Shown piece after piece: positions 21,401 through 60,325 of a DNA stretch of 60,325 nt. Position 1 is the first letter of the stretch. The number at the start of each line of letters is the position of its first letter. The position numbers and the translations under genes were made by a program. The stretch spans positions 1 to 60,325 of the forward strand of contig CAZXMN010000003.1 of the NCBI GenBank assembly GCA_964641375.1. The letters are read 5' to 3'. Below the pieces are notes generated by a model, which was not told the origin of the DNA, ran no database searches, and was given only the letters and a program-made list of their open reading frames with translations. The DNA is from an uncultured Candidatus Saccharibacteria bacterium. Its GTDB lineage: Bacteria > Patescibacteriota > CPR2 > UBA1875 > CAIMLA01.

Positions 21401-22753
21401 CTCTCGAATGCAGTTACTGCAGAAACATCAAATTTACCAACACTTACTACTACTGGCTTCAACATCACCCCGGGCACAGTCACAACTACTACATCAACAG
21501 CAGAGATCAATTGGACCACAAACCTTGATGCTTCATCTGCCTTTATTGAGTATCAGCTGCAAACTCAGCCAGGTGATGATCCTCAGGGTGGTACTTCTGG
21601 AGTTGATCCGAGTGTCTTAGCCTTAAATCCTCAGAAGCATCAGGTTGTCATCAAAGGTCTTCGTTCTAATAGAACCTATACCTACAAAATTAAATCAATC
21701 TCAATGGATGGCTATCTAGCCGAGAATCCAATTGGTTCATTCTCAAATTTCAAGACCAGAAACTTCGACTCAGCCCAGTTCTCGCTGGCTCCAGCCTCTT
21801 CGAATGTCGCCGATCGTAACATTACCTCAACCACGGCTCAAATTATCTGGCAAACAGCCACTGAGACTACCTCTTGGGTTGATTATGGTACAGTTTCTGG
21901 TGTCTATGGTATCTCCTCTGGCGATGACAATCTGACCACAACTCATCTAGTCACACTAGAAGGCTTGGTCCCTGGTACTACCTATTACTATCACGTCCGC
22001 GTGAAGGACGCTAATGAAGTCGAATTTACTTCACAAGAATATTCATTCACCGCTGTCATCAAACCAAAGATTTCTAACCTTCAGGTTAAGAATGTGACTC
22101 CATATTCCATCACCATTGCTTGGGATACTAATGTTGATACTGAAACTGTCCTAAATTGGGGTAAAACAGCTAGTTATGGCACGAAAGAAGGTACTTCTGA
22201 TGTCTCTCAAGTCCACCAAGTAACCGTCGATAATCTCGACGACAATACTGAATATCACTATCAGATTGTGGCTCATGATGCGGTCGGGAACGAAGTTGTC
22301 GGCAGTGACGGTATTGTGAGAACTCCACTTGATACCGAAGGGCCGAAAGTTACTAACGTCAAACTGGATGTCCTTCCTATGGGTGAAAGTGACACGACAG
22401 CCTCTATTATCGTCTCCTGGCAGACTAACAAACCTTCAACTACTTTAGTCCAATATGACGAAGGTGTAGTTGGTGGAACTTATAGCAAGAGTTCTGTACT
22501 CGATACCACTTTAAACAACTCCCATACCGTTATTATTAAAGATCTTGCTCCTGCCAGCTCATATCATTATCGTCTAGTTTCAGCAGACAAACGTAACAAC
22601 ACTACGACGACCCAAGATTACACCTTCGTAACTCCAACAAAGGAACAATCTATTCTTCAGTTGATTCTGAAGTCATTTGAGGATACCTTCGCCTGGACCG
22701 GTAACATGAATCAATTCTTCGGCAATGTTGGCAAGAGGCTAACAGGGAAATAA
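12419..22753 (+). CDS. Giant (3444 aa) surface protein: N-terminal TM/signal, 21 RCC1-like repeats, Ig-like and FN3/PAP-N-like repeats
   Basis: GTG start after gaggg; hydrophobic segment ending NKAYA; repeats GAVFAWGxNxxGQLGDNTTTQRNTPVQVLGVGGTGNLTGITAIAAG; HTLYYYxKDxAGNAE-type Ig repeats; five (I/V)xWxT...Y/WG repeats at the C-terminus. Confidence 0.92.
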   Translation: MKRRHVNTKRRMGTVGGLSLNGFLNVLKNGLKTVKKNYVQVNLAWLSAGYFFHLWIRMLHDKTYEKVPVYKKYSDAPISSTVHKTVMWAFVASFTFFTLFQYVLPNIFPANKAYASSNTKTWTTNADFANNKSSICGALTSDGNVTVNPSYNDPSCAQNESDGSATLSFGYQKLTGITKIAVSAVSSDVVALRGSDGAVFTWGDNTYGQLGDNTTTSRNTPVQVLGVGGSGNLTSITAIASGSSYSLALRSSDGAVFAWGLNSSGQLGDNTTTQRNTPVQVLGVGGSGNLTGITAIAAGDHTVALRGSDGAVFDWGTNGSGQLGDNTTTQRNTPVQVLGVGGTGNLTGITAIASGSSFSLAARGSDGAVFAWGTNSSGQLGDNTTTQRNTPVQVLGVGGSGNLTGITAVAAGYSHAVGLRGSDGAVFAWGYNNVGQLGDNTSIQRKTPVQVLGVGGTGNLTGITAIAAGYYHTVALRGSDGAVFDWGNNAYGSLGDNTSSQRNTPIQVLGVGGTGNLTGITSIAAGDYQTAVVRGSDKTVFAWGYNNVGQLGINSSDSNSHATPVQTVAPASIGTLTGITKISAKYQHVLAIRGSDGAVFAWGLNGQGQLGDGTTTARNYPVQVRYGLGYLTGITEISAGGSNSGYSSTDFGSSFAIRGSDGAVFSWGNMSGTYVPVQVAGVGGNGYLTGITKIVSSGFHTLAIRGSDGAVFAWGQNTYGQLGDNTTTQRSTPVQVLGVGGTGNLTGITSIDCSAYDPSVYYYASSYAVRGSDGAVFAWGYNGSGQLGDNTTIQRNTPVQVLGVGGTGNLFGMTTVSSNATSALVLRGSDGALFGWGTNSSGQLGDNTTTQRNTPVQVLGVGGTGNLTGIAAVSAGWGHTVALRGSDGAVFAWGSNYQGQLGDNTTTQRNTPVQVLGVGGTGNLTGMTMIQGGSFYSLALRNSDGAVFAWGYNNYGQLGVDTASQINTPVHTSTRSLSIDNNTYQYSGSVDGYIIDTGAGSKAYWNTVSWNATTPTNTSVKFNVRTSDNGTSWSSWSSDLVTPGGSAITASQSRYLDIQYTLSSDGTATSTLNDFSLNYNSVEAPINTNTTIYKSDGSTPLKSSAGSILSAGAAGGYTNESSVKIKTTSLSCSGCGTFTNPYTQVEYKPVGIAFTGTTNLINGAVDSGNQSTATITGLSSGTSYHFQMRTLDAQGRQSGWTSYGTTPEDVNEADITVDTTKPTVVVTINGGAQFTPQNATINVVAADAGGSNLGKLYFSNDGSNWTDVTPASGFTGQSSYSGNVPWTLTGGDGTKSVYTKIADNAGNTNADNKTWTTNADFSYNKASICGSIINNGNAAVSPSYTDPTCAANTADGTVTLTFGPQNLTGITAISAEWSHTIAVRGSDGAVFAWGSNGSGQLGDNTTTQRNIPVQVLGVGGTGYLTGITAVSAGGSYSLALRGSDGAVFSWGDNGWSQLGNNSVGGSTRTPAQVVGVGGSGYLTGITSISAGSEHSLALRGSDGAIFAWGRNAAGQLGDNTTTQRNAPVQVVGVGGSGFLTGNSMVSSGFDPNGNGYDYSLSVRSSDGAVFAWGYNGYGELGDNTTTQRNAPVQVKGLGGIGNLVGIAAVATGSSHSIALRSSDSAVFAWGNNNYGQLGDNTVTQRNVPIQVLGVGGSGNLVGITAISAGKDGSSLALRGSDGALFDWGYNGYGQLGINSSDSNSHAVPIQVLGVGGSGNLTGMTTITSGGDYSVARRSSDGAVFAWGYNSYGNLGDNTTSQRNVPVQTISVPVIYNTLGTISGYKLDAGVGAKQKWGNISWNSVALPAGTSIKFQARTSDDGVIWSDPSWGNTGATQSTTGSTTGSLDNSSLVGSRYFDVQVTLATTNNLVTPTLNDFTLGSTYGYASAIIDSSPPNDISTILGYSQSGGTALTSNNWYGYNVNGSKPFFSWTAPSDNGLAGVYGYCVYWGTAGITDPGTGCTTANAQTATNFSNNQTLVSGSTYYLNVKAIDNAGNASSTSAQFIYKYDNVAPTTTLNVSPSTPSGDNSWYKIGKPVVSFSAADSGSKTNKIYYRFDTDAAPYTQLSNTNGDDPYIQTLDASNLPEGTHTLYWYADDVSGNAETHHSQQFKIDVQAPTTGYAISPTSPNGDNGWYVTNAPVITLAPTDPNSGNNSGVASTYYQWDSNSGTWSTYTSTLTVSQGAHTLYYYTKDTAGNAEGQQQQTINFNAFVPNAPSGFRAPASDPNTDSTHIQLYWNSVSGTAPTVAYQTRRILATGTWGVNEVVVNHGSSDISYLDSTGLQPGLRYKYEIRTQDNSGLWGSWSDPIDGLTTDSLSPTPVVGVLTTACDGTTGNIPTTSVPVCSNTANKGFEIALTWTPSNDYGVGMSRYLIYRSTTNSIDPADWQIVGTLDATSVLTNPVYYDNDTNNDATFGTDKPVATDRLNDSTTYFYRVTALDLSPTGNPTGLIPLNPFDNLNTATTPDITAPTVPTNVVASPMGLDSSGSHQRIHLTWTASIDYKARSEEVVPGTITYKIFEATTEGGSYTQVATTTSLTTDLNGKDEFTDYYYQINASDASPAHNESAHSTDAHVHTASNSVPTTPTEVNVTAATGNPNTDSSVGHQITVTFFGSLAKNCDKLANVRCLTKYEVYRSTTNYADDASWTANATKIAEVAPTKIDDDRKKNDADQPHSVTDTGQTFPATSGTGLTDATTYYYKVMAIDNTPVTPDGGPFHSPMSTIAYPGSLHIGWDNTPDATAPALPSNVIIHDIHGDGVSYLRNIISWSRIPDPNRNGINDFKEYRIYRSVDGLFWQQICTKGLESSGCSVNDPNPLYNVDQNMAMGNNYYIDPISSDPQIANQMYYYYVTSADNASTTYKYPTPNGNLVVNAVTNESKPPRDSNNKITNAVSLNPATTQPSICDIGTDPCTVTAGGQKADLTNIGVATATINWTTDQPADSMVEFRKAGTDDAYKQIGDGDSSRNLGMVTSHSVDLFGLQPSTSYQYIIVSRNFLSNAVTAETSNLPTLTTTGFNITPGTVTTTTSTAEINWTTNLDASSAFIEYQLQTQPGDDPQGGTSGVDPSVLALNPQKHQVVIKGLRSNRTYTYKIKSISMDGYLAENPIGSFSNFKTRNFDSAQFSLAPASSNVADRNITSTTAQIIWQTATETTSWVDYGTVSGVYGISSGDDNLTTTHLVTLEGLVPGTTYYYHVRVKDANEVEFTSQEYSFTAVIKPKISNLQVKNVTPYSITIAWDTNVDTETVLNWGKTASYGTKEGTSDVSQVHQVTVDNLDDNTEYHYQIVAHDAVGNEVVGSDGIVRTPLDTEGPKVTNVKLDVLPMGESDTTASIIVSWQTNKPSTTLVQYDEGVVGGTYSKSSVLDTTLNNSHTVIIKDLAPASSYHYRLVSADKRNNTTTTQDYTFVTPTKEQSILQLILKSFEDTFAWTGNMNQFFGNVGKRLTGK
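12938..15335 (+). repeat. RCC1 repeat block 1: 14 units of about 57 aa
   Basis: 14 xxxFxWG units counted in the translation; 171-nt period between units at 14942 and 15113. Confidence 0.9.
16517..17722 (+). repeat. RCC1 repeat block 2: 7 units
   Basis: 7 xxxFxWG units counted in the translation. Confidence 0.9.
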
Positions 22754-29412: not shown

Positions 29413-31179
29413 ATGTTTGTAAAAGATGAAAAGAAGTTTGAAGAGACCCTAGAAAGTCTCCAATTGCTGAAGCCCGAGCAATTGGAAATGGTTCGAATAG
29501 AAAGTGCTAGGAGTGGTAAGGATTTTGAGTCTGTCATTCGTGATCTCAACATGATGGATCCCGAGCTCTTGATAAAGGCTAAGGCCATTTCAATGAACTT
29601 ACCATATATAGATCTCTCCAGTACACATGTTGATCAATCAATTCTAAATTTTTTTACGAAGGATTTGGCAGAAAAGTATATGGCGGTGCCTTTTGGTTTT
29701 ACTGGTGGCAATATCAGTGTGGCCATGACAGATCCGAATGATGTTCAGGTTATCGAATTTATCGAGAAGAAAAGTGGCTATCCTGTCTCACCGTATATGG
29801 CTTCGGAAAGTAGTATCAAGAAGGTTATCGAAGAATACCAAGATATTTCAGGAGAAGTTGGCGAGGCTTTGAAAGAAGTTGATCTCGGACCAAAGATTGA
29901 GATCAAAAATAGTGACGACTCGCAGAATCTGGCACAGGACGCGCCGGTTACCAGGGCTTTAAATACCATACTTGAGTACGCCGCCAAGTCACTTGCTTCA
30001 GACGTTCATATTGAACCGAGAGAGAAACAAATCAAAGTTCGTTATCGAATTGACGGCGTTTTGCATGATACCATGAATCTGCCTTCACATATTTTGCCGG
30101 CTCTCGTTTCTAGAATAAAAATTCTTTCAAATATGAAGATTGACGAACATCGCGTGCCTCAGGATGGACGTTTCGATATCAGTGTTGATGGCAGAGATAT
30201 CGATCTTCGTGTTTCTCTTTCGCCGACGGTTTATGGTGAAAAAGTCGTAATTCGTCTTCTCGACAAATCGGGAGGCGTCATCACCCTGGAGGATCTGGGT
30301 ATTAGGGGTCGTGCCTACAAAATAATCGAAGCTGGTACTAAACGTCCGCACGGGATGATTCTGGCGACTGGACCTACGGGCTCAGGTAAATCAACCACGT
30401 TATATGCACTTTTAACTAAGATGAATAAACCTGAAGTCAACATTATTACACTTGAGGATCCTGTAGAATACCAAGTGGATGGGGTCAATCAGATTCAGAT
30501 CAATACTCAAGTTGGATTGACGTTTGCTTCAGGTTTACGCTCAATTCTCCGTCAAGATCCAGATGTCATAATGGTTGGTGAGATTCGTGATGCTGAGACA
30601 GCGAGTTTGGCTGTGCAGTCGGCCTTGACAGGCCATACGGTACTTTCAACAATTCATACGAATAATGCTGCCGGTGTTTTGCCTAGGCTATTAGACATGG
30701 AGATTGAACCATTTTTAATTGCATCTACTGTCTCAACCGTTATTGGCCAGCGCTTAGTCAGGCGACTTTGTCCGAAATGTAAAGAAGCCTATAAAGCATC
30801 TCCAAGTCTAGTAGCTGCAATCAAGAAAGATTTAGCCGGACTTCTTCCGAATAAAAAAGATATTGATGCTAAGGAAAAATTTGAGAATGTCGGCTATGAT
30901 AAACTTCCATTCAACGATGATTTAGAATTCACTTTATACAAAGCAAAAGGTTGTGAAGCTTGTCGAAATACCGGGTATTCAGGACGTATTGGTATCTATG
31001 AGGTTTTCCCTGTATCGAATGTCATGGAAAAACTGTTGTTATCTCACGCAACCACCTCAGAGATTCAGGACGCGGCCGTCAAGGAAGGTATGATTACCAT
31101 GCGACAGGATGGGTTTTTGAAGGCTCTTACTGGAGTAACTTCCATCGAAGAAGTTGTTTCTAAGGCCTCAGAGTATTAG
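29413..31179 (+). CDS. pilB: Type IV pilus extension ATPase PilB (GspE/PulE family)
   Basis: ASDVHIEP, PQDGR, GPTGSGKST, TLEDPVEY, LRQDPD, tetracysteine CPKC...CEAC. Confidence 0.96.
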   Translation: MFVKDEKKFEETLESLQLLKPEQLEMVRIESARSGKDFESVIRDLNMMDPELLIKAKAISMNLPYIDLSSTHVDQSILNFFTKDLAEKYMAVPFGFTGGNISVAMTDPNDVQVIEFIEKKSGYPVSPYMASESSIKKVIEEYQDISGEVGEALKEVDLGPKIEIKNSDDSQNLAQDAPVTRALNTILEYAAKSLASDVHIEPREKQIKVRYRIDGVLHDTMNLPSHILPALVSRIKILSNMKIDEHRVPQDGRFDISVDGRDIDLRVSLSPTVYGEKVVIRLLDKSGGVITLEDLGIRGRAYKIIEAGTKRPHGMILATGPTGSGKSTTLYALLTKMNKPEVNIITLEDPVEYQVDGVNQIQINTQVGLTFASGLRSILRQDPDVIMVGEIRDAETASLAVQSALTGHTVLSTIHTNNAAGVLPRLLDMEIEPFLIASTVSTVIGQRLVRRLCPKCKEAYKASPSLVAAIKKDLAGLLPNKKDIDAKEKFENVGYDKLPFNDDLEFTLYKAKGCEACRNTGYSGRIGIYEVFPVSNVMEKLLLSHATTSEIQDAAVKEGMITMRQDGFLKALTGVTSIEEVVSKASEY

Positions 31180-31202
31180 AATAGTAGTATTGGAGGGTAT
31201 CA

Positions 31203-32267
31203 ATGGCAGAGCTTAAAATCGAAACATTACTCGAAGAGGTTGTAAAGAAGAATTCCTCTGATCTTCACTTGTCCGTCGGTGCTCCTCCGATGCTTCGTAT
31301 CGACGGTAGCCTTGTACCAGTGACGGGAGCTGAAGCTCTGACTGAAGATGATGTCGAGCAGCTTATCTACTCTGTTGTCGATGATGTACAGAAGGATATT
31401 TTACTCAAAGATAAGGAAGTCGATTTTTCCTTCGCTTTTGGTGACATTGCCCGTTTCCGTGCAAATGCGTTTCATCAGAAGGGGAATCTCGGGTTATCAC
31501 TCCGTTTGATACCCACGAAGCTTCGTTCGATTGCTGAACTTGGACTCCCAGAGTCTATAGAGAAGTTTACTTCTGTTCCCCGTGGACTAGTTCTCGTGAC
31601 TGGTCCTACTGGATCAGGTAAATCTACCACTCTTGCTGCTCTTATCGATAAGATAAACACCGAGAAAAGCGTACACATCATCACGATTGAAGATCCTATA
31701 GAGTATACTCATAATAATAAAAAATCTTTGATTGAACAGCGTGAAGTTCACTACGATACACGTTCTTTCGCGGCCGCTTTACGCAGTGCGCTTCGTGAGG
31801 ATCCGGATGTAGTGCTTATCGGTGAAATGCGTGATCTAGAGACTATTTCTGCCGCTATCACGATTGCAGAAACGGGTCACTTGGTTCTGGCGACACTCCA
31901 CACAAATAATGCAGCTCAGTCTATCGATCGTATGATTGATGTGTTTCCGCCATATCAGCAGCAACAGATTCGTGTTCAGCTTTCTAATATTCTACAAGGT
32001 GTCGTTTCACAGAGGCTCATCCCTTCCATTGGTGGTGGACGTGTAGCGGCGGCTGAAATTATGATTTCGACACCAGCTGTCCGTAATATTGTTCGCGAAG
32101 GTAAAACCCATCAACTTGATGCTGTCATTCAGACTGGCGCTGATCAGGGCATGATTCAAATGGACAAAGCCTTGGTTCAGTTGGTGAAAACCGGTCGCAT
32201 CACTGAGGACGAGGCCAAGGGTTATTGTATTGATACCGAGGAATTTTCGAGATTACTACATGGATAA
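31203..32267 (+). CDS. pilT: Type IV pilus retraction ATPase PilT
   Basis: SDLHLS, GPTGSGKST, LREDPD, ATLHTN, AVRNIVRE (AIRNLIRE motif). Confidence 0.96.
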   Translation: MAELKIETLLEEVVKKNSSDLHLSVGAPPMLRIDGSLVPVTGAEALTEDDVEQLIYSVVDDVQKDILLKDKEVDFSFAFGDIARFRANAFHQKGNLGLSLRLIPTKLRSIAELGLPESIEKFTSVPRGLVLVTGPTGSGKSTTLAALIDKINTEKSVHIITIEDPIEYTHNNKKSLIEQREVHYDTRSFAAALRSALREDPDVVLIGEMRDLETISAAITIAETGHLVLATLHTNNAAQSIDRMIDVFPPYQQQQIRVQLSNILQGVVSQRLIPSIGGGRVAAAEIMISTPAVRNIVREGKTHQLDAVIQTGADQGMIQMDKALVQLVKTGRITEDEAKGYCIDTEEFSRLLHG

Positions 32268-32273
32268 AACAAG

Positions 32274-33470
32274 ATGATAGAATACAACTATAAAGCGAAA
32301 ACAAAAGATGGGGACATTCAAACAGGTGTAGTCGAAGCGGAGAACGAATCCGCTGCGGCTAAGGTTCTAACTTCGAAGGATCTCTTTCCAATTCTAGTAA
32401 CGACTAGAGAATCACATTCATTCAATTTCTTGAAAAACGTACCAGTGAAACAGAAAGTGGTTTTTGTTCGTCAGCTAGCTACCACAATCACGGCTGGTTT
32501 GCCTATTGCTCAGGCTATTAATATGATCAAGGATCAAGTTTCAAATGAAAATTTGAAAAATATCTTGGTTCAAGTGGGCAGAGATATTGAAGGTGGTTCA
32601 TCTCTCTCGGCTTCACTTAATCGTTTTCCTGGGACTTTCTCCCAAGTCGATATAACTTTAATAGCAGCTGGGGAGACCAGTGGTTCCCTAGATAAAGTCC
32701 TGATGAGGCTTGCAGATACTACAGAAAGTGATTATCAAATTTCTAGAAAAATGAGAAGTGCCTTTATCTATCCGGGATTTGTACTGGCGGTTGTTATTGG
32801 GGTTGTGATACTGATGTCTGTGTATGTAATGCCACAAATGCAGGGGTTGTTTGATAGTTTTAATGCAAAGTTACCATTGGTAACTAGGATTGTTATAGGT
32901 ACTAGTAATGCTATTAATCATTACGGCCTAATGCTCGTAGCTATAATTGCCGCGATTGTTGGTGCTATCTATTGGTATGTTCGTACTCCGGATGGTCGTT
33001 TTTTGAAGGACAGACTTGTTATAAAAATACCAGTTATTGGGGGATTCCTTATCAAAGTCTATACTTCTAGACTGACCCATACACTAGCAGGACTGGTGGG
33101 TTCGGGCGTGTCTTTAGTCGATGCTTTAGCAATTTCCTCTCGGGCAATGGGTAATAAGGTTTATGAAAATTCGATAAAAGCTGCTAGTGAAAAAGTGAAA
33201 ACTGGCGTAGCCTTATCGGCTTATGTCAATCATGATCATCTATTTGACGCAATGGTACCGCAGATGATTAAAGTCGGCGAAGAAACTGGTGAGCTCGATA
33301 CTATGCTGACAAACCTAGCTAATTATTTTGACGAGGAAGTTGATAATTTTGTAAAAAGTTTATCTAGTATTATAGAGCCAGTTTTGATAGTTGTTATGGG
33401 TGTGTTTGTAGCAATAATCCTGGTAGCCATAATGTTGCCTATTTATAGCATCGGACAATATATCAAATAA
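32274..33470 (+). CDS. pilC: Type IV pilus platform protein PilC (GspF family)
   Basis: Two T2SSF repeats (AGETSGSLD, VGEETGELD...EP), three TMs. Confidence 0.95.
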   Translation: MIEYNYKAKTKDGDIQTGVVEAENESAAAKVLTSKDLFPILVTTRESHSFNFLKNVPVKQKVVFVRQLATTITAGLPIAQAINMIKDQVSNENLKNILVQVGRDIEGGSSLSASLNRFPGTFSQVDITLIAAGETSGSLDKVLMRLADTTESDYQISRKMRSAFIYPGFVLAVVIGVVILMSVYVMPQMQGLFDSFNAKLPLVTRIVIGTSNAINHYGLMLVAIIAAIVGAIYWYVRTPDGRFLKDRLVIKIPVIGGFLIKVYTSRLTHTLAGLVGSGVSLVDALAISSRAMGNKVYENSIKAASEKVKTGVALSAYVNHDHLFDAMVPQMIKVGEETGELDTMLTNLANYFDEEVDNFVKSLSSIIEPVLIVVMGVFVAIILVAIMLPIYSIGQYIK

Positions 33471-36512: not shown

Positions 36513-37098
36513 AAAGGGCATCACATTGATTGAGATACTTGTCGCATCAGCGGTATTTATGACTTTGATGGGTTTGGTTGTTGGCTCCTTTATTGCACTT
36601 ACTAACGCAAAATCATTGAGCGTAAGGATGAGAAACTCTCAAGAGAAATTAAGAGTGTCTCTGGATATGATCTCAAGGCTTTCTAGACAAGCAAGCGATG
36701 TAAATATAGTTGTAGCAGGAGGAGAACAAAGACTTATTCTAACAAATAACCCAACGGACGGACAATCGATCGAAACAGGAGCCCAATTTATCATTGAGGC
36801 ACCTAACTCAGCGGGTTTAAGTAACCTTTATTATCTGGAATGTTCGGGATTAGCAGATTGTTCGAATAGTTTCAGTACAAGATCTAAAACGCTTGGACAA
36901 AATCTTCTTGGAGGAGCTAGTAGCGATGTAAAGCTGATTGTTGGTGGGAGCAACGGCAGCACTTTCAAAAGGACTTTTGTGGATAATATTCCATATTTAG
37001 ATGTTATTTTGAATAGTAGCACTGGTAGCCAGACAAAAAGTGACTACAGTGACAGTCTTTATCTGGAAACAGGGGTGGTTATAGGGGAATCTTACTGA
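36505..37098 (+). CDS. Minor pilin (PilW-like)
   Basis: KKG|ITLIEI motif. Confidence 0.8.
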   Translation: MSKKGITLIEILVASAVFMTLMGLVVGSFIALTNAKSLSVRMRNSQEKLRVSLDMISRLSRQASDVNIVVAGGEQRLILTNNPTDGQSIETGAQFIIEAPNSAGLSNLYYLECSGLADCSNSFSTRSKTLGQNLLGGASSDVKLIVGGSNGSTFKRTFVDNIPYLDVILNSSTGSQTKSDYSDSLYLETGVVIGESY

Positions 37099-39434
37099 TG
37101 AAGCAGACAATTACAAAAGGATTTGCACTCATATGGTCGTTAATACTCATAACGATTTTGCTTATTGTTTCTACGACTGTAGCAACAGCTATCGTCAAAG
37201 AATCTAGAATGTCATTAAACTCTACGGATTCGTTGAGGGCATACTCTGCAGCCCAAACTGGTGTCGATTTAGCCAGAACGCAATTTGTAAATGGCATCGA
37301 AAATTGGCGCAAGACAAACGGGAATACCGATGATGTGTCATATGATTTTAACGGTTTGCTGGCAGGTAATAACGCCAGTTATTCTGTAAAATATTGGCCA
37401 AGTCCGAAATCTCTTATAGAATCAACAGGGACAGTTGGTACGATAAGCAGAAAAATTGATTATACAATGGCAGCTCCTACAGAAGTCACACCAAATAGTG
37501 ACTTAAATGATGCCATCAATGGTCAGAATAATAAACAACTTGTAGCAGATAAGAGCTTTTCTCTATCATTTGACTACTGGGCCCCTACATCGGGTTCAAC
37601 CAACTATATAAGGATACAAAATTCGAACGGTTATATTAATATCGGTCTTACGGTATTTAGCCAAAGTGTAAACGTAGTCTTGTACGAGCACATTAATTCA
37701 ACAGGAACAAATGTGCCAACTCCTGTAGCTGATACAATCTCATCTTTTAATGCGCCTTTGAACACTTTTTCGAATACTCCTTATTCTTATAACATCAAAG
37801 TTGATTATGAATATGATGCTTATTTGAAATATACATTTACAACAAAGGACTCAAATATGAATCCGAAGTGTGCCAAAACGAATGTTTATGATGTATCCGC
37901 AGCCCCTGCATTAGATCTTTCAGGTAATGACAGCCTGGTTTTCTCACCAGCCGTTAGTTTGTATACACCGACAAGCTCTGACAATTTCACTAAGCCAGTC
38001 TTTACAAGTGGTGGCATCTATATGGATAACTTCATAGGAGTTGGCATCGGAGTATCCACGCCTAGACAAATTCTGACAATTTCTAATCCAATTGTCGGTG
38101 GTACTGTGAGCACGGCTGACAACTATATTAATTGTGGAACAGGGGGCAATTCTTGCCAAAATAATTTCGTCAAGGGCGCCGCAGTAACCCTAACGGCCGT
38201 CGCTGATACCGGCTATTCGTTTGGCAGCTGGTCCGGTGGAACTTGTAGCGGAACCGACAGTCAGCCTTGTACATTCACAATAAATTCTGATATAACCGTT
38301 GGGGCCAGTTTCACGACCGGTTCACAGTCCAATCTTATAACCAACGGCGACTTTTCGAACGGTTTCACGAGTTGGAGTGTGGTTAACTTCAGTGGCCCTA
38401 GTTGGCAGCTGGGAAATGAGTCAGGAAACAATTATATTAGCATTACTCATACTGCAGGAACAAATTGGAGTGCCATCGGTCAGGATATGACAAGCAAAAT
38501 GTCATCGAACACAAATTATCAATTAACATTTAGATATAAAGCCGCAGTTGGTACTACTGGTTCGGCAAACTTTAGGCTTGGTGATAGTACTATGGTAAAT
38601 GTTGCGACTATACTTGGCGGTTTCCCAGTAACAGCAGACGGTGCTTGGCATAGTGCCGAGATTGATTTCACTACTACAACATTCCCGCCGGTTTCTGGAC
38701 GTAGTATGCCAATGCTCGGTATTTGGTTCGATTATAATCAGCTAGGAACTTATTACTTTGATGATCTGAGTCTTGTTGCTGGTACACCTTCGGGTGGTGG
38801 GGGAAGCGGAACAAGTCCCGTTATTCTCACTTCTGGCTCTGGTAGTTGGACCGCACCCGCAGGCGTTACATCGGTCACTGTTTATGCCTGGGGGGCTGGT
38901 GGTTCCAATGAAGGTAATCACGGTTATGACCAAGGCGGGGGAGGAGGTGGTGCTTTCACAAAGTCAGTAATGTCTGTTGTTCCCGGTAATACTTATAATT
39001 ATTCAGTTGGGATGGCCAGTACTGGGAATGCTGGAGGTGATACCTGGTTTGTCAATGCTTCTACGGTTCTTGCAAGGGGTGGCGGTTATGCTGGTGATAG
39101 TGGTGGAGCAGCCGGTGGGCAGGCTTCTGGCTGTATTCCTAGCGCTGGTGCCTATTCAGGTGGTAATGGTGGTTACGCCGATACTTCAGATGACTGGGGC
39201 GGTGGTGGTGGTGGAGGAGCAGGCTCTGGCGGAGCAGGTGGGCGTGGCTATGCTGGTGGCGATGCTGGTGGCTCTGGTGGTGCTGGTGGAACAGGAACTT
39301 ACTCAGGAGGATCTGGTTCTGATGGCTCAAATTATTCTGATGCTAGCGCCCCAGGTGGGGGTGGCGGCGGAGATGACGCCTATGGTGATATGGGAGGTAA
39401 TGGGGCTAACGGTCAAATTATCCTAGTGTTCTAA
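37098..39434 (+). CDS. Large PilX-like minor pilin with InlB-B-repeat-like, CBM-like and glycine-rich domains
   Basis: TKG|FALIW (no E5, as in PilX/GspK); AYSAAQTGV; VTLTAVADTGYSFGSWSG...CTFTINSDITVGASF; NLITNGDFSNGFTSW; SGSWTAPAGVTSVTVYAWGAGG followed by Gly runs. Confidence 0.82.
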   Translation: MKQTITKGFALIWSLILITILLIVSTTVATAIVKESRMSLNSTDSLRAYSAAQTGVDLARTQFVNGIENWRKTNGNTDDVSYDFNGLLAGNNASYSVKYWPSPKSLIESTGTVGTISRKIDYTMAAPTEVTPNSDLNDAINGQNNKQLVADKSFSLSFDYWAPTSGSTNYIRIQNSNGYINIGLTVFSQSVNVVLYEHINSTGTNVPTPVADTISSFNAPLNTFSNTPYSYNIKVDYEYDAYLKYTFTTKDSNMNPKCAKTNVYDVSAAPALDLSGNDSLVFSPAVSLYTPTSSDNFTKPVFTSGGIYMDNFIGVGIGVSTPRQILTISNPIVGGTVSTADNYINCGTGGNSCQNNFVKGAAVTLTAVADTGYSFGSWSGGTCSGTDSQPCTFTINSDITVGASFTTGSQSNLITNGDFSNGFTSWSVVNFSGPSWQLGNESGNNYISITHTAGTNWSAIGQDMTSKMSSNTNYQLTFRYKAAVGTTGSANFRLGDSTMVNVATILGGFPVTADGAWHSAEIDFTTTTFPPVSGRSMPMLGIWFDYNQLGTYYFDDLSLVAGTPSGGGGSGTSPVILTSGSGSWTAPAGVTSVTVYAWGAGGSNEGNHGYDQGGGGGGAFTKSVMSVVPGNTYNYSVGMASTGNAGGDTWFVNASTVLARGGGYAGDSGGAAGGQASGCIPSAGAYSGGNGGYADTSDDWGGGGGGGAGSGGAGGRGYAGGDAGGSGGAGGTGTYSGGSGSDGSNYSDASAPGGGGGGDDAYGDMGGNGANGQIILVF

Positions 39435-41258: not shown

Positions 41259-41720
41259 TTGTTACTGAAATACATTGAAGTTTTTCTACTTGCTGCTACG
41301 CCAATAATTGAGCTACGTGGAGCTTTGCCGGTAGCCATTCTCGGCTTCCATTTACAAATCTGGCAAGCGTATCTACTCTGCGTAATTGGTAGCTTTGCCC
41401 CAACCATAGTAATCGTTTATCTGCTTGGACCAGTTTCAGATTTCTTACGTAAATATATCAAGTTTTTTGAGTGGTTTTTCTCAAAATTATTCCAGTATGC
41501 TCGTGACAAGAATTCCAAGAAGATTGAAGCGCTCAAGGAATCGTCTGTTTTCATTATTGCAGCCCTGCCGATTCCGCTAGCCGGAGCTTGGAGCGCGGCT
41601 CTGGCCGCATTTGTCTTTGACATCCCACCGAGGAAGTCACTTCCGCTAATGTTTCTCGGTACCGCAGTCGCTGGTGGTATAGTATTATTACTAACATTAT
41701 CAGCAAAGGCAATTTTCTAA
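41259..41720 (+). CDS. Small multi-drug export family membrane protein (COG2426-like)
   Basis: PIIELRGALP...PIPLAGAWSAAL. Confidence 0.85.
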   Translation: MLLKYIEVFLLAATPIIELRGALPVAILGFHLQIWQAYLLCVIGSFAPTIVIVYLLGPVSDFLRKYIKFFEWFFSKLFQYARDKNSKKIEALKESSVFIIAALPIPLAGAWSAALAAFVFDIPPRKSLPLMFLGTAVAGGIVLLLTLSAKAIF

Positions 41721-42973
41721 TGCGAGAATATGAACTTACAAATGGGATTAAGGTCATTGAGGACCCGATTTCGGATGCTGCATCATTCACGATACTTGTG
41801 ATGTTCAAAACCGGTTCAAGGAACGAGACTCCCAATATTTGGGGTATTTCACATTTTCTGGAGCATATGGCTTTCAAGGGAACACCTAGCTATCCGAATG
41901 CGGCACTACTCGCCAAGGAACTAGACGGGCTTGGTGCTCTCTATAACGCCTTTACCTCGAAAGAATATACCGGCTATTTTATAAAAGGATCCAGAAAAAT
42001 CCTTCCTAAGGCAATAAGTATTATATCCGAAATGACACTTAGCCCAATCATTCTTGATGAAGAAGTCGACAAAGAACGTGGTACAATCGTCGAAGAAGTT
42101 CATATGTCAGAAGATGATCCAAGACGAAGGGTTTATGACCTTTTTGAAGAGTCGATTTATGAAAACAAACAAATTTCTCAAGATACGCTAGGAACAGAAG
42201 CCTCTCTCTCAGGTATTCACGCCAAAGAAATCATAGACTATAGAGAGAAATATTATCGTTCAGGTAATGCAGTTATCGCCGTCTCTGGATTTGTGCCTTC
42301 TGATTTAGAAGAAACTTTAGAAAAGTCTTTTTCTGCCATGTTGGAAGGAAAAAATAAGTACTTAACTTCTATTCTTGAAACCAGAAAGCAGATCAATATT
42401 ACCTACAAAGAGACTCAACAGACGCATCTGGCTATCGGCTTCCCAGGCGTAGACGTTCATAACAAAGACAGAGTAACTGCGCAAGTATTATCAATTTTAC
42501 TTGGTGGCAATATGAGTTCCCGTATGTTTAGTGAAGTTCGTGAAGAGCGTGGGCTCGCATATTATGTCAATACTTATAGTGATAATATGGATGATGCTGG
42601 TATCTTGGTGACCTTTGCTGGTGTAAATAATGAGAAAGCCCTGGAAGCCATCCGAATAATTCGTGATGTTTACAAAAGTGTTCTCACTGAGATACCAGAA
42701 GAAGAGATTCAAAAGACCAAAGATTACATTTCCGGTATGATTACTTTAAGTTATGAGGATAGTGAGAAACGTAGTGAGGTAAATGCTATTACCGAACTGT
42801 ACGGCGAACAGCAGAAAACACTCGAACAACGTCTTTCTGAGATTGAAGCCGTAACCACCGAAGAAGTCGTTGTCCTCGCAAATAAGTTGTTTAATGACAA
42901 GAAAATATGCTTGGCCCTCATCGGACCCTTCAAAGATGAGGCAGAGTTTGCTAAAATATTAGGGCTTAAATAG
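41720..42973 (+). CDS. M16 (pitrilysin) family zinc peptidase
   Basis: GSRNE, HFLEH inverted zincin motif, NAFTSKEYT, SSRMFSEVREERGLAY. Confidence 0.93.
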   Translation: MREYELTNGIKVIEDPISDAASFTILVMFKTGSRNETPNIWGISHFLEHMAFKGTPSYPNAALLAKELDGLGALYNAFTSKEYTGYFIKGSRKILPKAISIISEMTLSPIILDEEVDKERGTIVEEVHMSEDDPRRRVYDLFEESIYENKQISQDTLGTEASLSGIHAKEIIDYREKYYRSGNAVIAVSGFVPSDLEETLEKSFSAMLEGKNKYLTSILETRKQINITYKETQQTHLAIGFPGVDVHNKDRVTAQVLSILLGGNMSSRMFSEVREERGLAYYVNTYSDNMDDAGILVTFAGVNNEKALEAIRIIRDVYKSVLTEIPEEEIQKTKDYISGMITLSYEDSEKRSEVNAITELYGEQQKTLEQRLSEIEAVTTEEVVVLANKLFNDKKICLALIGPFKDEAEFAKILGLK

Positions 42974-57522: not shown

Positions 57523-57978
57523 TTAAACAATTTTATTAATTAGATTTTTTGCCCAAGTTTTAGCTCTCTCAAGGTCTTTTTCGTTAGGATGTCCTTTTGC
57601 AAAGCCTCCAAAGGGCTTTGAAATTGGAGGATAAGTGTCAAAACCAAGGCACTCGAAAAAATCGATTATTTCAAACCCGGCATCTGTGAAAGTTTTTCTA
57701 AAATTGTTATGGAATTTATTGTAAAAAGCGTCAGGTCCACCGCTTGTGGCGATGATAAAACACCTTTTCTCATTATTGGTAAATAGTCTTTCGAAACCTA
57801 CGTGTGGCTTCGCAAAATAAACTCCACTGGCAAAACCTATCACGTCATAGTCGGCGAGCATTTCAGTCTTGGCCTTTGCGAGTGGAACTATCTCACAGTT
57901 AAGGACCTCGGCAACAGCCTTGACTACTTTTTCAGTATTCATGTGGTGAAATGATTGATAAATAATTACAGTTTTCAT
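57523..57978 (-). CDS. Flavodoxin family protein
   Basis: IIYQSFHHMNTEKV, YDVIGFASGVY, IATSG, CLGFDT...GHPNEKDL. Confidence 0.88.
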   Translation of the reverse strand: MKTVIIYQSFHHMNTEKVVKAVAEVLNCEIVPLAKAKTEMLADYDVIGFASGVYFAKPHVGFERLFTNNEKRCFIIATSGGPDAFYNKFHNNFRKTFTDAGFEIIDFFECLGFDTYPPISKPFGGFAKGHPNEKDLERAKTWAKNLINKIV

Positions 57979-58190: not shown

Positions 58191-58270
58191 TTCTAAATCC
58201 AGACTTTTTATCGACCTGTAGTTATTAACAATGAGACGTGACAAATGCATTTAAATTCCTTCCTAAACAA

Positions 58271-58296
58271 ACTAGCAAGCCGATCGGCTTGCTAGT
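58271..58296. repeat. Perfect 26-nt palindrome
   Basis: actagcaagccgatcggcttgctagt is its own reverse complement. Confidence 0.95.
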
Positions 58297-58464
58297 CTTT
58301 GTAAGTCGACCAGATTAACTGGCCTTCATTGAATTATTGGAACTGTTTAGTTCCATCATGCGTACTTTGGCGAAGCGGCGCGCGCCAAGGCCTTTTTAAG
58401 CACAGAACGAGACAAACGAGACACTAAATCCAAGATGTCATAAGCCCTCTTGTGGGTGCCTGTA

Positions 58465-58493
58465 TTGACTAAGTATTAGGAAAGTAATATAAT
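58465..58493 (+). promoter_or_regulatory. sigma70 promoter of the radical SAM cassette
   Basis: TTGACT-17 nt-TATAAT. Confidence 0.8.
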
Positions 58494-58519
58494 GCCGCCA
58501 AGCTAGGCCGCCAAGCTAG
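58494..58519 (+). repeat. 13-bp direct tandem duplication at the predicted transcription start
   Basis: gccgccaagctag twice. Confidence 0.9.
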
Positions 58520-58589
58520 TCCGCTCCCCACATCATGTGGGGGGTTCTGTATACACAAACTAGTTCGCACCTTGAAAGGGTGATTACCG

Positions 58590-59885
58590 ATGCTGTACCG
58601 TCAGCTAAGGGCTCCTATTAGTGCCCAGATTGAGCTAACAACGGAGTGCTCAAACAACTGTCCGCACTGCTACAACTATCAGCGGCAAGACGACGATCCC
58701 GATACCACAATGTCCGTTGAGCAACTGCGAACTACATTCGCAGCGCTCGGTCGGGCAGGCGTCTTCTCCACCATTATCACTGGTGGGGAACCTGGTCTAC
58801 GACCTTCTCTGGTTGTGGAAGGGATTCGCTTGTGCTCAGAACTGAACATTTCATGCTCCATCAACACTAATCTGACGACTCTGACTGAAGAGACGTTGGT
58901 TAAGATGGTGGAGGCGGGTAAGTTCACGGTTCTGACCTCAATCGCATCTTTCCAGGAGTCGGTCCATGACGCGATGATGGGAAGAAGCGGTGCTTTTCGC
59001 AGAACCGTGCGGGGAGTTGAACTTCTTAAGCAGTACGGGGTTCCGTTCTCGGCGAACATGGTTGTGGCTCAAGCAAACGCTGGTCAAGTGTATGAGACTG
59101 GACTGTTTGCACACTCCCTAGGTGCCAGGTCATTCTCAGCCACAAAGGCGTCACCGCCGCTTGGGTGCAACGACTACTCGAAGGTTCAGCCGACACGCGA
59201 TCAAGTCCGACAATCTCTCGATGATCTACTCCGACTCAACGAAGAGACGGGGATGCCGGTTGATATCCTAGAGTGCTACCCGCTCTGTTTCTTCGGAAAT
59301 GTCGAGAAGTACAAGAGGTTCACTCGGCATAAGTGCTCGGCAGCAATTTTCTCGAGCGCGATTGGGGCTGACGGTCTGGTACGGCCGTGCTCTCACTCGA
59401 ACCGTACCTACGGCAATGTCTTCACGGAAGATCTCGACGTAATCTTCTCTCGAATGCTAGAGTGGAGGAGTGGAGATCTGCTTCCGGAGCAGTGTCTCAA
59501 CTGTAACTACTTCAGCCAATGTTCTGGTGGTTGTCGTTGTGAAGCTGAGCATGCGGGAGACATCGCTGGGATGGATCCATATGCACTTGGAGAGTCGAGT
59601 GTGATTCCCCAAGCAAGCGAGGTATCTGTCGAGTTCGCAGTAGCTGATGAGACTCGCTTCGGTATTGACGCTTCCGTACGCTTCCGCAAGGAAGGATTCG
59701 GCTATGTCGTCAAGGGTCGGGCTTCCTTCGCCATAGTCGGTCCGGAGGCAGGCGACCTGCTCATGAAGCTGCAGATGTCCGGTATGACTCTAGCCGAAGC
59801 AAGTCGCTATTCTGGCTTTGACCCCGATCAAGTTCTCGCGGTGTTGAAGGGCCTGGTTTCAAAGAGGATAGTGAGTTTTGTATAG
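58590..59885 (+). CDS. Radical SAM/SPASM enzyme with probable C-terminal PqqD/RRE-like domain (putative RiPP maturase)
   Basis: CSNNCPHC (Cx3Cx2C), TGGEP, SPASM C-x12-G-x4-C and Cx2Cx5Cx3C, about 80-aa beta/helix C-terminal extension. Confidence 0.92.
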   Translation: MLYRQLRAPISAQIELTTECSNNCPHCYNYQRQDDDPDTTMSVEQLRTTFAALGRAGVFSTIITGGEPGLRPSLVVEGIRLCSELNISCSINTNLTTLTEETLVKMVEAGKFTVLTSIASFQESVHDAMMGRSGAFRRTVRGVELLKQYGVPFSANMVVAQANAGQVYETGLFAHSLGARSFSATKASPPLGCNDYSKVQPTRDQVRQSLDDLLRLNEETGMPVDILECYPLCFFGNVEKYKRFTRHKCSAAIFSSAIGADGLVRPCSHSNRTYGNVFTEDLDVIFSRMLEWRSGDLLPEQCLNCNYFSQCSGGCRCEAEHAGDIAGMDPYALGESSVIPQASEVSVEFAVADETRFGIDASVRFRKEGFGYVVKGRASFAIVGPEAGDLLMKLQMSGMTLAEASRYSGFDPDQVLAVLKGLVSKRIVSFV

Positions 59886-59953
59886 CTCACTGAAGGCCGC
59901 ACCTCGGTAATGTGTCTACCCCGCTTGTCTGGGAACAGGAAGGAGGAAACGGG

Positions 59954-60067
59954 ATGGAGCTTCTCGGCATCGTGAATGGCGCGTCCGTCGATTCGATGGC
60001 GTCCAGTTGCGAGTGTGACAGCCCCAACTGCGACAGCGGTTGCGACTCCGACAACGACAACGACTAG
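59954..60067 (+). CDS. Putative RiPP precursor peptide, 37 aa, Cys/Asp-rich (not in ORF track)
   Basis: AGGAGG (59941-59946) 7 nt before the ATG; MELLGIVNGASVDSMASSCECDSPNCDSGCDSDNDND*; directly after the radical SAM gene and before a strong terminator. Confidence 0.85.
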   Translation: MELLGIVNGASVDSMASSCECDSPNCDSGCDSDNDND

Positions 60068-60101
60068 AAACCGGCGACACGAAGGACGTCGGTAGCACTG
60101 G

Positions 60102-60143
60102 GACCCGGTGCCCCTTTGGGGGTACCGGGTCTTTTCGTTTTTT
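60102..60143 (+). terminator. Strong intrinsic terminator closing the radical SAM-precursor operon
   Basis: 13-bp stem gacccggtgcccc-tttg-ggggtaccgggtc followed by ttttcgtttttt. Confidence 0.9.
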
Positions 60144-60325
60144 ACATAGCGGAACTATGAGATGTGGTGAGTGTGGCTCATTTATTATTGGTGAACGGAA
60201 GTTCAAGACTCTCAGAAAGTCCGGCAAAAAGACTATGTATATTTACTATCTTTGCTCAAAGTATTCACATCGGGAATGTAAGCAGCTTCCTATAAACGAG
60301 CAAGCTTTAATACCTCAACTTGTTA
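60139..60325 (+). pseudogene. 5'-truncated large serine recombinase fragment (zinc beta-ribbon), runs off the window
   Basis: FLHSGTMRCGECGSFIIGERKFKTLRKSGKKTMYIYYLCSKYSHRECKQLPINEQALIPQLV matches the CxxCG...YYxC...C...I.E pattern; no catalytic domain upstream in this frame. Confidence 0.75.

Follow-up and report, generated by a model that had tools for sequence, protein, structure and literature searches.

The 60,325-nt stretch of DNA analyzed here (the window; contig CAZXMN010000003.1 of an uncultured Candidatus Saccharibacteria bacterium) carries near its end a compact two-gene unit of 1.7 kb (58465..60143), in which a promoter-like site, the gene for a 431-aa radical S-adenosylmethionine (SAM)/SPASM enzyme, the gene for a small Cys/Asp-rich peptide and a terminator follow one another. 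We read the unit as the maturase and precursor of a ribosomally made peptide with post-translational modifications (RiPP) in which the four Cys residues are probably cross-linked through thioethers. It is very likely that the peptide is the substrate of the upstream enzyme. By analogy with characterized systems, the chances that the product contains Cys thioethers are somewhat better than even, and the β-carbons (Cβ) of Asp residues are a more tentative proposal for the acceptors, with a chance below even. The gene pair belongs to a large unnamed family in the ultra-small bacteria of the Patescibacteria, or Candidate Phyla Radiation (CPR), where it is kept in hundreds of genomes. The unit comprises the following features:

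58465..58493, forward strand: promoter-like TTGACT-17-TATAAT, 11/12 matches, 97 nt before the radical SAM start codon
58590..59885, forward strand: radical SAM/SPASM peptide maturase gene, 431 aa (Pfam Radical_SAM, PF04055, E 1.2e-25)
58647..58670, forward strand: CX3CX2C radical SAM cluster motif, C20/C24/C27, all three invariant in an alignment of 40 homologs
59274..59540, forward strand: SPASM-type auxiliary Fe-S region, C229, C233, C249, C267, C302-x2-C305-x5-C311-x3-C315
59655..59882, forward strand: predicted C-terminal RiPP recognition element (RRE), a PqqD-like winged helix at residues ~356-431, by fold match
59940..59946, forward strand: Shine-Dalgarno sequence AAGGAGG, 7 nt 5′ of the ATG
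59954..60067, forward strand: precursor open reading frame (ORF), from ATG at 59954 to TAG at 60065-60067, 37 aa, MELLGIVNGASVDSMASSCECDSPNCDSGCDSDNDND
59954..60007, forward strand: predicted leader region M1-S18, MELLGIVNGASVDSMASS, with the N-terminal hydrophobic motif of the family at L3-N8
60008..60064, forward strand: predicted core region C19-D37, CECDSPNCDSGCDSDNDND, with 4 Cys, 6 Asp, 1 Glu and 3 Asn
60100..60143, forward strand: intrinsic terminator, a 15-bp stem with 10 G-C pairs, then the T tract TTCGTTTTTT

Re-translation reproduced exactly the ORF position and the peptide reported in an earlier note on this DNA, which had been made from the letters alone. Its description of the core was accurate as well: C-D-S occurs three times (C21-D22-S23, C26-D27-S28 and C30-D31-S32), Cx2D is found at C19-D22 and C30-D33 and Cx3N at C21-N25 and C30-N34, and the core contains neither Cx3D nor NxxC. 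We placed the boundary between the predicted leader and core where conservation and the Cys residues start. The peptide gene lies 68 nt beyond the end of the radical SAM/SPASM gene. That the 37-codon frame is a real gene follows from the ORF with its Shine-Dalgarno sequence and terminator, from the 16 contigs that hold the identical pair, from the occurrence of such peptides at 128 of 168 related loci, from the core shared within the closest clade, and from the synonymous codon changes seen there.

The promoter-like site is a consensus match, and its function is presumed from that match. Directly past its -10 box, at 58494..58519, GCCGCCAAGCTAG is duplicated perfectly in tandem, and a 20+20-nt palindrome is located upstream of the site at 58264..58303. 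Both are candidate operator or regulatory sites; in this part of the window (58264..58519) there was no Rfam match. A 19-nt inverted repeat, 89% complementary, links the SPASM-coding part of the enzyme gene (59522..59540) with the Asp/Asn-rich tail of the peptide gene (60051..60069), and is probably a by-product of runs of GAC/AAC-rich and GTT/GTC-rich codons.

The enzyme has the residues of a SPASM-type radical SAM protein. In addition to the cluster motif, C233, C249, C267, C302, C305, C311 and C315 of the SPASM region are invariant in the 40 homologs and C229 is conserved in at least 90% of them, and the Pfam SPASM match is weak (19.8 bits versus a cut-off of 21.5). Placement of the enzyme in a named family was ruled out, as the NCBIfam and Pfam scores are under all family cut-offs. 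Indeed, no NCBIfam family cut-off was reached (265 to 850 for the best-scoring families), and the top scores, all below cut-off, were those of NirJ2 (94 bits) and of AhbD, GeoRSP, PqqE, ScmE and MftC (82-91 bits). The AlphaFold2 model of the enzyme has a predicted local distance difference test (pLDDT) score of 93.1, and its nearest folds in the PDB are those of the peptide maturases SkfB and SuiB and of anSME, at ~20% identity; for SkfB (6efn), the E value is 2.8e-17 in the fold comparison and 9.1e-13 in the sequence comparison. A sequence search of solved structures gave only distant matches to SkfB, PqqE and SuiB. QhpD-type enzymes cross-link Cys to Asp/Glu in a protein subunit, with a QhpC-like substrate and an amine dehydrogenase operon; QhpD was not among the 25 best NCBIfam matches of the enzyme, and the surroundings of the cassette showed no genes for an amine dehydrogenase. 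A flavodoxin-like gene (57523..57978, reverse strand; Pfam Flavodoxin_3, 28.0 bits versus a cut-off of 27.5) lies in low-G+C host DNA, ~600 nt 5′ of the radical SAM gene. It could supply the reductant for the enzyme, but nothing ties the two together.

A further domain of the enzyme follows the SPASM region. In both models, residues 356-430 form four strands and then three helices, and residues 338-431 modeled alone have a pLDDT of 89.6. The best Foldseek match of this domain is PqqD (5sxy, E 7.2e-4, template modeling score 0.65), and the next are RRE-bearing enzymes, namely, ThcOx, MccB, PbtF, McbBCD, TruD, TbtB, TbiB1 (lasso B1 proteins) and SuiB. Because PqqD and then this series of RiPP enzymes match the modeled domain, we assign it as an RRE fused, on the model, to the C-terminus of the enzyme. 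A sequence profile of the domain leads to winged-helix proteins, and the Pfam PqqD model gave no match to the C-terminal 97 residues of the enzyme, so that the domain is recognized by structure only. The thioether-forming maturases CteB, AlbA and PapB have their RRE at the N-terminus, and an RRE after SPASM is an unusual domain order. The recognition domain, the linkage of the two genes and the domains of the enzyme together bear out the proposal of the earlier note that a genuine precursor-type gene is coupled here to a radical SAM/SPASM enzyme.

The identical enzyme-peptide pair, with the same neighbors, was found in 16 independent metagenome contigs from several samples, and the recurrence of its junctions in these contigs of different assemblies rules out an assembly chimera behind the jump in G+C content described below. 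Protein homologs of the enzyme (128 scored matches, P0002-P0120 among them) are 63% identical or less, and their named sources are Patescibacteria or Saccharimonadales. A tblastn check gave relatives in 315 stretches of species-representative genomes and in at least 450 of JGI metagenomes; 160 loci, mostly from Patescibacteria metagenome-assembled genomes, were kept from the genome and metagenome scans, and 168 loci were fetched in all. At 128 of the 168, a Cys-rich short ORF is found downstream of the enzyme homolog on the same strand, usually 20-300 nt away and with a good Shine-Dalgarno sequence, which gives ~100 distinct peptides. These peptides are unnamed or called ‘hypothetical protein’ in all source databases, and gene callers overlooked the peptide ORF in 5 of 8 listed contigs (L001-L005). 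Searches of NCBIfam, SCIFF precursor models included, with the window peptide and nine relatives gave no match at E up to 10 other than a spurious sigma-70 match of one relative.

Look-ups of the nearest enzymes, combined with a three-sequence profile search, added five distinct relatives to the window peptide, for a total of six peptides with the shared core CxCD...NCDSGCD[SY]D:

Peptide at locus L169: ...CECDSPNCDSGCDSDNDSD
Peptide at locus L171: ...CDCDHDNCDSGCDYDNDPA
Peptide P0141: ...CDCDGGPNCDSGCDYDNDKDND
Peptide P0142: ...CECDSPNCDSGCDSDNDRD
Peptide P0143: ...CQCDHDNCDSGCDYDQCDRD

Conservation of the Cys, Asp and Asn positions, on which the earlier note had made its proposal depend, is present in this clade: 11 core positions are invariant in the six peptides (C19, C21, D22, N25, C26, D27, S28, G29, C30, D31 and D33). 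The spacing from the second Cys to the Asn differs in P0141, and the acidic tail is kept only as D[SY]D[NQ][DC]; binding of a metal by this tail, including Ca2+ at DNDND, is a guess. The neighboring enzymes of at least four of the five relatives are 50-63% identical to the window enzyme (the context of P0141 is not among them), and P0142 and P0143 are encoded directly 3′ of 430-aa enzymes with 50-52% identity. Between the genes of the clade, Cys and Asp codons show synonymous differences. In this closest clade the core (15 residues) is more conserved than the enzyme, and as it outlasts enzyme divergence to 50-63% identity, strong purifying selection on the core or its product is implied; at the level of the sequences, this argues for selection acting on the product. 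The enzymes at L009, L010 and L089 are 61-62% identical to the window enzyme, yet their peptides have quite different Cys/Asp cores, and the peptide at L174 (enzyme 55% identical) has two Cys only. The family thus diversifies its cores.

This diversity has a clear regularity. Family cores contain 26% Cys and 21% Asp, with 2-10 Cys per core and Cys-Cys gaps mostly of 1-3 residues. Asp occupies 42% of the positions directly after a Cys (z +15 relative to composition-preserving shuffles, as are all z values here) and is also enriched directly before it (z +7), and at least one C[DE] dipeptide occurs in 92 of 107 cores. Tyr is enriched at Cys+1 and Ser at Cys+2, Asp at Cys+4 (Cx3D) is weakly enriched (z +1.9), and Asn shows no enrichment at a fixed distance after Cys, being enriched only directly before it. 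The observation made in the earlier note was sound, and its interpretation held for the gene and the coupling to the enzyme; it failed for the Cx2D and Cx3N pairs as a feature of the family, since Asp at Cys+3 (z -4.0) and Asn at Cys+4 (z -2.8) are depleted. The same pairs are consistent with the close clade, in which neither CxCD nor CD[SY]D varies.

The leaders are also recognizable across the family. The motif G/S-F/I/Y-V/E-S/T-L/I was found near the N-terminus of 52 of 104 peptides, versus 4.8 expected in shuffles, and the remaining leaders are visible variants such as LSIVE, VGILRL and LGIVN. The hydrophobic stretch LLGIVN of the window peptide matches this family-wide motif. The earlier note had likened it to an INVIAGV stretch of the PapA leader, and the published leader does contain that stretch (LKQINVIAGVKEPIRAYG; PMC10739248).

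Some precursors have no Asp in the core. These cores sit beside enzymes 35-41% identical to the window enzyme; ACYCNCGCACHVTG is an example of such a core, and the pair at L046 encodes ACYCHCACACHVTG. One subclass has the leader G-Y-V-S-L-L and ends in (A/S)C(Y/F)C(N/H)C(G/A)CAC(H/Y/V)V.., and a very short type reads MFVSIY..SFCCQ(S/N)CGT. Asp-free precursors were seen downstream of homologs at L025, L035, L045-L048, L055, L056, L059, L110 and L144.

From these data and the literature, we infer a scheme that covers binding of the leader, formation of thioethers, the acceptors, the ring pattern, the role of the peptidase and the biological function. The C-terminal PqqD-like RRE would bind the N-terminal leader of the peptide (MELLGIVN...), and the radical SAM cluster at C20/C24/C27 of the enzyme would cleave SAM to a 5′-deoxyadenosyl radical. 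With the help of two SPASM auxiliary clusters, C19, C21, C26 and C30 of the peptide would then be joined to nearby carbons as intramolecular thioethers, for which the likeliest acceptors would be the abundant, conserved Asp residues (at Cβ, as in ranthipeptides). The product would be a small, highly constrained and strongly anionic polycyclic peptide. At most related loci, an adjacent HExxH protein would probably remove the leader; the window is without that gene.

The thioether reading is the most economical one because of what characterized systems do. SPASM enzymes acting on Cys-rich precursors mostly form thioethers, and they do so via a Cys thiolate bound to an auxiliary cluster (PMC10288494, PMC9389541). 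PapB forms a thioether between Cys S and Asp Cβ and tolerates, in vitro, Cys and Asp that are adjacent or up to six residues apart (PMC10739248), so the reaction proposed here is within known chemistry; for the same reason, unusual spacing alone is not proof of new chemistry. The new crosslink topology that the earlier note considered is a guess. NxxcB makes a Cys-Asn β-thioether and accepts Asn, Asp, Ala or Gln at the acceptor position (PMC9389541). The strong adjacency of Cys and Asp in the family points to Asp as a participant in the reaction.

Several points weigh against this reading. The evidence for the unit comes from sequence and models. The models of thioether-forming families are all under their cut-offs for the window enzyme (PapB 51.8/340, AlbA 74.9/850, SkfB 53.8/300 and StsB 53.2/625 bits) and score no better than NirJ2, AhbD and PqqE. 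Adjacency is the only Cys-to-Asp spacing that is enriched, and no more than one acidic residue is present in 14 of 107 related cores (the CYCxCxCAC and CCQxCGT types), which means that Asp is not a universal acceptor and that a carboxylate acceptor is not general for the enzyme family. The cassette in the window has no leader peptidase or exporter, no homolog of the HExxH partner was found across the whole window, and as a foreign G+C-rich insert beside a recombinase remnant the cassette could be an incomplete copy. Given the Asp-free subclasses and the absence of a family assignment, we leave some probability to S-Cα links, other chemistries and a metal-binding role.

The alternative that survives best, although we consider it unlikely, is that the enzyme forms sactionine-type links, from Cys S to an α-carbon (as in subtilosin, SKF or the Cys-Gly link of StsA), with Asp serving for solubility, charge or target binding. 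The sactisynthase SkfB is among the best matches in solved structures by both fold and sequence, and the AlbA (74.9 bits), SkfB and StsB models score the same as or above PapB; however, all three scores are far under the family cut-offs. The Asp-free subclasses beside homologous enzymes need other acceptors, which α-carbon chemistry allows, but they belong to distant enzymes (35-41% identity), and the enrichment of Asp at Cys+1 and Cys-1 is easier to explain if Asp reacts.

Less probable again is a chemistry other than thioether formation, such as formylglycine formation (as by anSME), C-C or C-O cross-links, epimerization or decarboxylation, where free Cys and Asp would bind metal or Fe-S and the product would be a metallophore or a metallothionein-like peptide. 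CxC/CxxC spacing flanked by carboxylates is a typical feature of metal sites, but the hypervariable number (2-10 per core) and spacing of the Cys residues are a poor fit to one defined site. Similarly, anSME is among the best fold matches, but to our knowledge anSME-type enzymes carry no RRE and act on sulfatases. The top NCBIfam scores of the enzyme are those of SPASM enzymes that do not form thioethers (NirJ2, AhbD, PqqE and MftC), whereas the characterized SPASM enzymes that act on Cys-rich precursors mostly do (PMC10288494, PMC9389541).

A further alternative concerns the completeness of the unit in this genome, and its evaluation depends on the surroundings of the two genes. The whole unit sits within an island:

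58350..60140: G+C-rich island holding the whole two-gene unit, G+C ~0.52-0.57 in host DNA of ~0.30-0.48

The G+C content is 0.532 for the radical SAM gene and 0.596 for the peptide gene, versus 0.425 for the rest of the window. The cassettes at L010, L169 and L171 are G+C-rich too, with low-G+C flanks; as their genomic contexts differ, this pattern points to horizontal spread. Past the terminator, an ORF that corresponds to a large serine recombinase from its zinc beta-ribbon onward (Pfam Zn_ribbon_recom, E 1.6e-6) abuts the cassette; it occupies 60157..60325, runs off the end of the window and is present in full, with 138 aa, in contig L001 (11568..11984). It has no N-terminal catalytic domain, as if its 5′ part had been removed by the insertion of the cassette or by deletion. 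In longer contigs, a VRR-NUC-like ORF follows this remnant. No convincing direct or inverted repeats that could mark the ends of a mobile element flank the island, and carriage of the cassette by phages was rejected as no relative was present in IMG/VR.

The commonest neighbors of the pair, present at 100 or more related loci, are related groups of 230-340-aa HExxH proteins (41, 41, 28, 14 and 8 loci), whose gene is usually located just 3′ of the peptide gene. Examples with HELMH or HESMH are found at L169 (4074..4853), L171 (4063..4764) and L179 (4207..4923), and another HExxH protein is encoded at L098 (4326..5111). One group has a weak Peptidase_MA_2 match, below cut-off, and the other groups match no Pfam family; sequence searches of the PDB and Pfam gave nothing beyond this match. 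The HExxH proteins are likely a new leader-peptidase family, the peptidase role being a prediction. Among the conserved neighbor families there is no ATP-grasp ligase. Decayed relatives also occur: the HExxH gene at L174 (4015..4764) is broken into two frames, and at L175 (3800..4200) the region 3′ of the enzyme gene yielded no Cys-rich peptide ORF. In the window, an M16 (insulinase-type) peptidase gene (41720..42973, forward strand) lies 16 kb from the cassette. M16-family peptidases process some RiPP precursors.

Against this background, the cassette might be an incomplete, recently acquired copy, with the peptide left unprocessed or the unit decaying, and without a function in the host. Such a state would be compatible with any chemistry, and we give it the same low probability as the non-thioether chemistries. 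A G+C content of 0.53-0.60 in a 0.42 genome, the adjoining serine-recombinase gene reduced to its zinc-ribbon and C-terminal part, and the decayed relatives L174 (split HExxH gene) and L175 (peptide ORF not found) are in keeping with it; however, both frames are intact, with their promoter-like site, Shine-Dalgarno sequence and terminator, and the same sequence is found in 16 contigs from several samples. The HExxH partner of L169, L171, L179 and ~100 other loci is not in the window, but the window stops 258 nt past the peptide stop codon, longer contigs add ~1-1.5 kb downstream, and the M16 peptidase is encoded elsewhere in the window. Finally, that the peptide frame is a chance short ORF and the enzyme acts on something else is effectively refuted: short ORFs are frequent and gene callers missed this one in 5 of 8 contigs, but its position, strand and composition are conserved in 128 of 168 loci, its core is kept in six peptides across enzymes 50-63% identical, its Shine-Dalgarno sequence is strong and the enzyme carries a predicted RRE.

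Returning to the proposed thioether-forming maturase and its precursor, the system resembles those of ranthipeptides and sactipeptides, yet by each criterion tested it falls outside the PapB, SCIFF, sactisynthase and NxxC families. With PapA/PapB (freyrasin) it shares a SPASM maturase beside a short precursor, repeated Cys and Asp in the core and a hydrophobic leader stretch (LKQINVIAGV... in PapA, MELLGIVN... here). However, the window enzyme scores 51.8 bits against the PapB model NF047865, whose cut-off is 340, the core has no Cx3D repeats, and the hallmark of the family here is Asp directly after Cys. The RRE is C-terminal, as opposed to N-terminal in PapB and CteB, related loci include the HExxH partner, and the hosts are Patescibacteria. 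NxxcA/NxxcB, a streptococcal system in which a radical SAM enzyme forms β-thioethers between Cys and Asn, is similar in chemistry to our proposal, but the window peptide has no NxxC and NxxcB is not among the 25 best NCBIfam matches of the enzyme. The earlier note was thus right to set the core apart from the PapA and NxxcA substrates.

The other known systems differ in their own ways. SCIFF/thermocellin (CteA/CteB) also pairs a Cys-rich short precursor with a SPASM enzyme that has an RRE, but the SCIFF precursor models miss the window peptide, which is Asp-rich, and the 25 best matches of the enzyme do not include the SCIFF maturase model. By fold and sequence, AlbA, SkfB and StsB rank with the closest relatives, and their substrates are Cys-rich precursors, but identity is ~20%, the scores are far under the model cut-offs, and the domain order is another one. 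Like PqqE/PqqD and MftC/MftB, whose SPASM enzymes need a PqqD-type domain and whose PqqE and MftC models score 82-86 bits, the enzyme has such a domain, but fused at its C-terminus; the cut-offs of 381 and 265 are far from reached, and the substrates of the window family are Cys/Asp-rich, without a Glu-Tyr or Val-Tyr target. Graspetide clusters of the CPR are likewise RiPP loci of this bacterial group, and some of them carry zincin-type peptidases and SPASM enzymes (Makarova et al. 2022, PMC8939145), but no ATP-grasp ligase is conserved near the pair and the precursors are unrelated. We found no paper on this family in the radical SAM and RiPP literature on Patescibacteria, CPR and Parcubacteria, with subscription journals outside the coverage, where a description could exist.

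Taken together, we describe an uncharacterized, widespread and CPR-centered radical SAM RiPP family whose substrate motif and domain order set it apart. It is a more speculative proposal, and on balance an unlikely one, that it represents a distinct RiPP class of the Patescibacteria/CPR, in which a SPASM enzyme with a C-terminal RRE installs an undescribed cross-link pattern or another Cys/Asp chemistry. If this were the case, the candidate pattern would be one of very small rings, from Cys to the neighboring Asp, in repeated CD units, and the product would be a compact polyanionic peptide for the dealings of an episymbiont with its host bacterium or for capturing metals. In that case, the NCDSGCD[SY]D core, which is nearly invariant, would act as a functional pharmacophore that was spread horizontally as a G+C-rich cassette.

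From a biological perspective, Patescibacteria have tiny genomes with few biosynthetic genes. That the pair is kept in hundreds of genomes, with a core that in the closest clade is more conserved than the enzyme, suggests a product of importance to these episymbionts; its role may lie in interaction with the host, in competition or in the handling of metals. For enzymologists, the interest lies in a SPASM maturase with its RRE after SPASM and in a substrate logic of Asp adjacent to Cys, unlike that of PapA, SCIFF, NxxC and the sactipeptides. The natural variants, including the Asp-free subclasses, could reveal how the acceptor carbon is chosen when thioethers are formed by radical chemistry.

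A few observations stand beside these results. A second, different radical SAM gene (364-469 aa) is found beside the homolog at L173 (350..1835, reverse strand), L177 (37..1538, forward strand) and L178 (539..1633, forward strand). Two of these genes have short peptides of their own, MDIIVDDTSAESCDLSGGECNDCAPV at L173 and MVVVDNNVSAGSCDLSGGECNDCAPDISED at L177, which look like a separate precursor family. As to the host, its DnaK marks it as a Patescibacteria bacterium, with 85% identity to that of a ‘Patescibacteria group bacterium’ and 81% to that of Candidatus Howlettbacteria. A single ORF (12419..22753, forward strand) encodes a giant protein of 3444 aa, of a kind that is typical of surface or adhesion proteins in the CPR. 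The window also holds a type IV pilus set (29413..33470 and 37098..39434, forward strand) with a T2SSE/PilB-like ATPase, a T2SSF/PilC-like protein and a large PilX_N-containing protein with CBM and Gly-rich domains, and this set fits the episymbiotic lifestyle of Patescibacteria.

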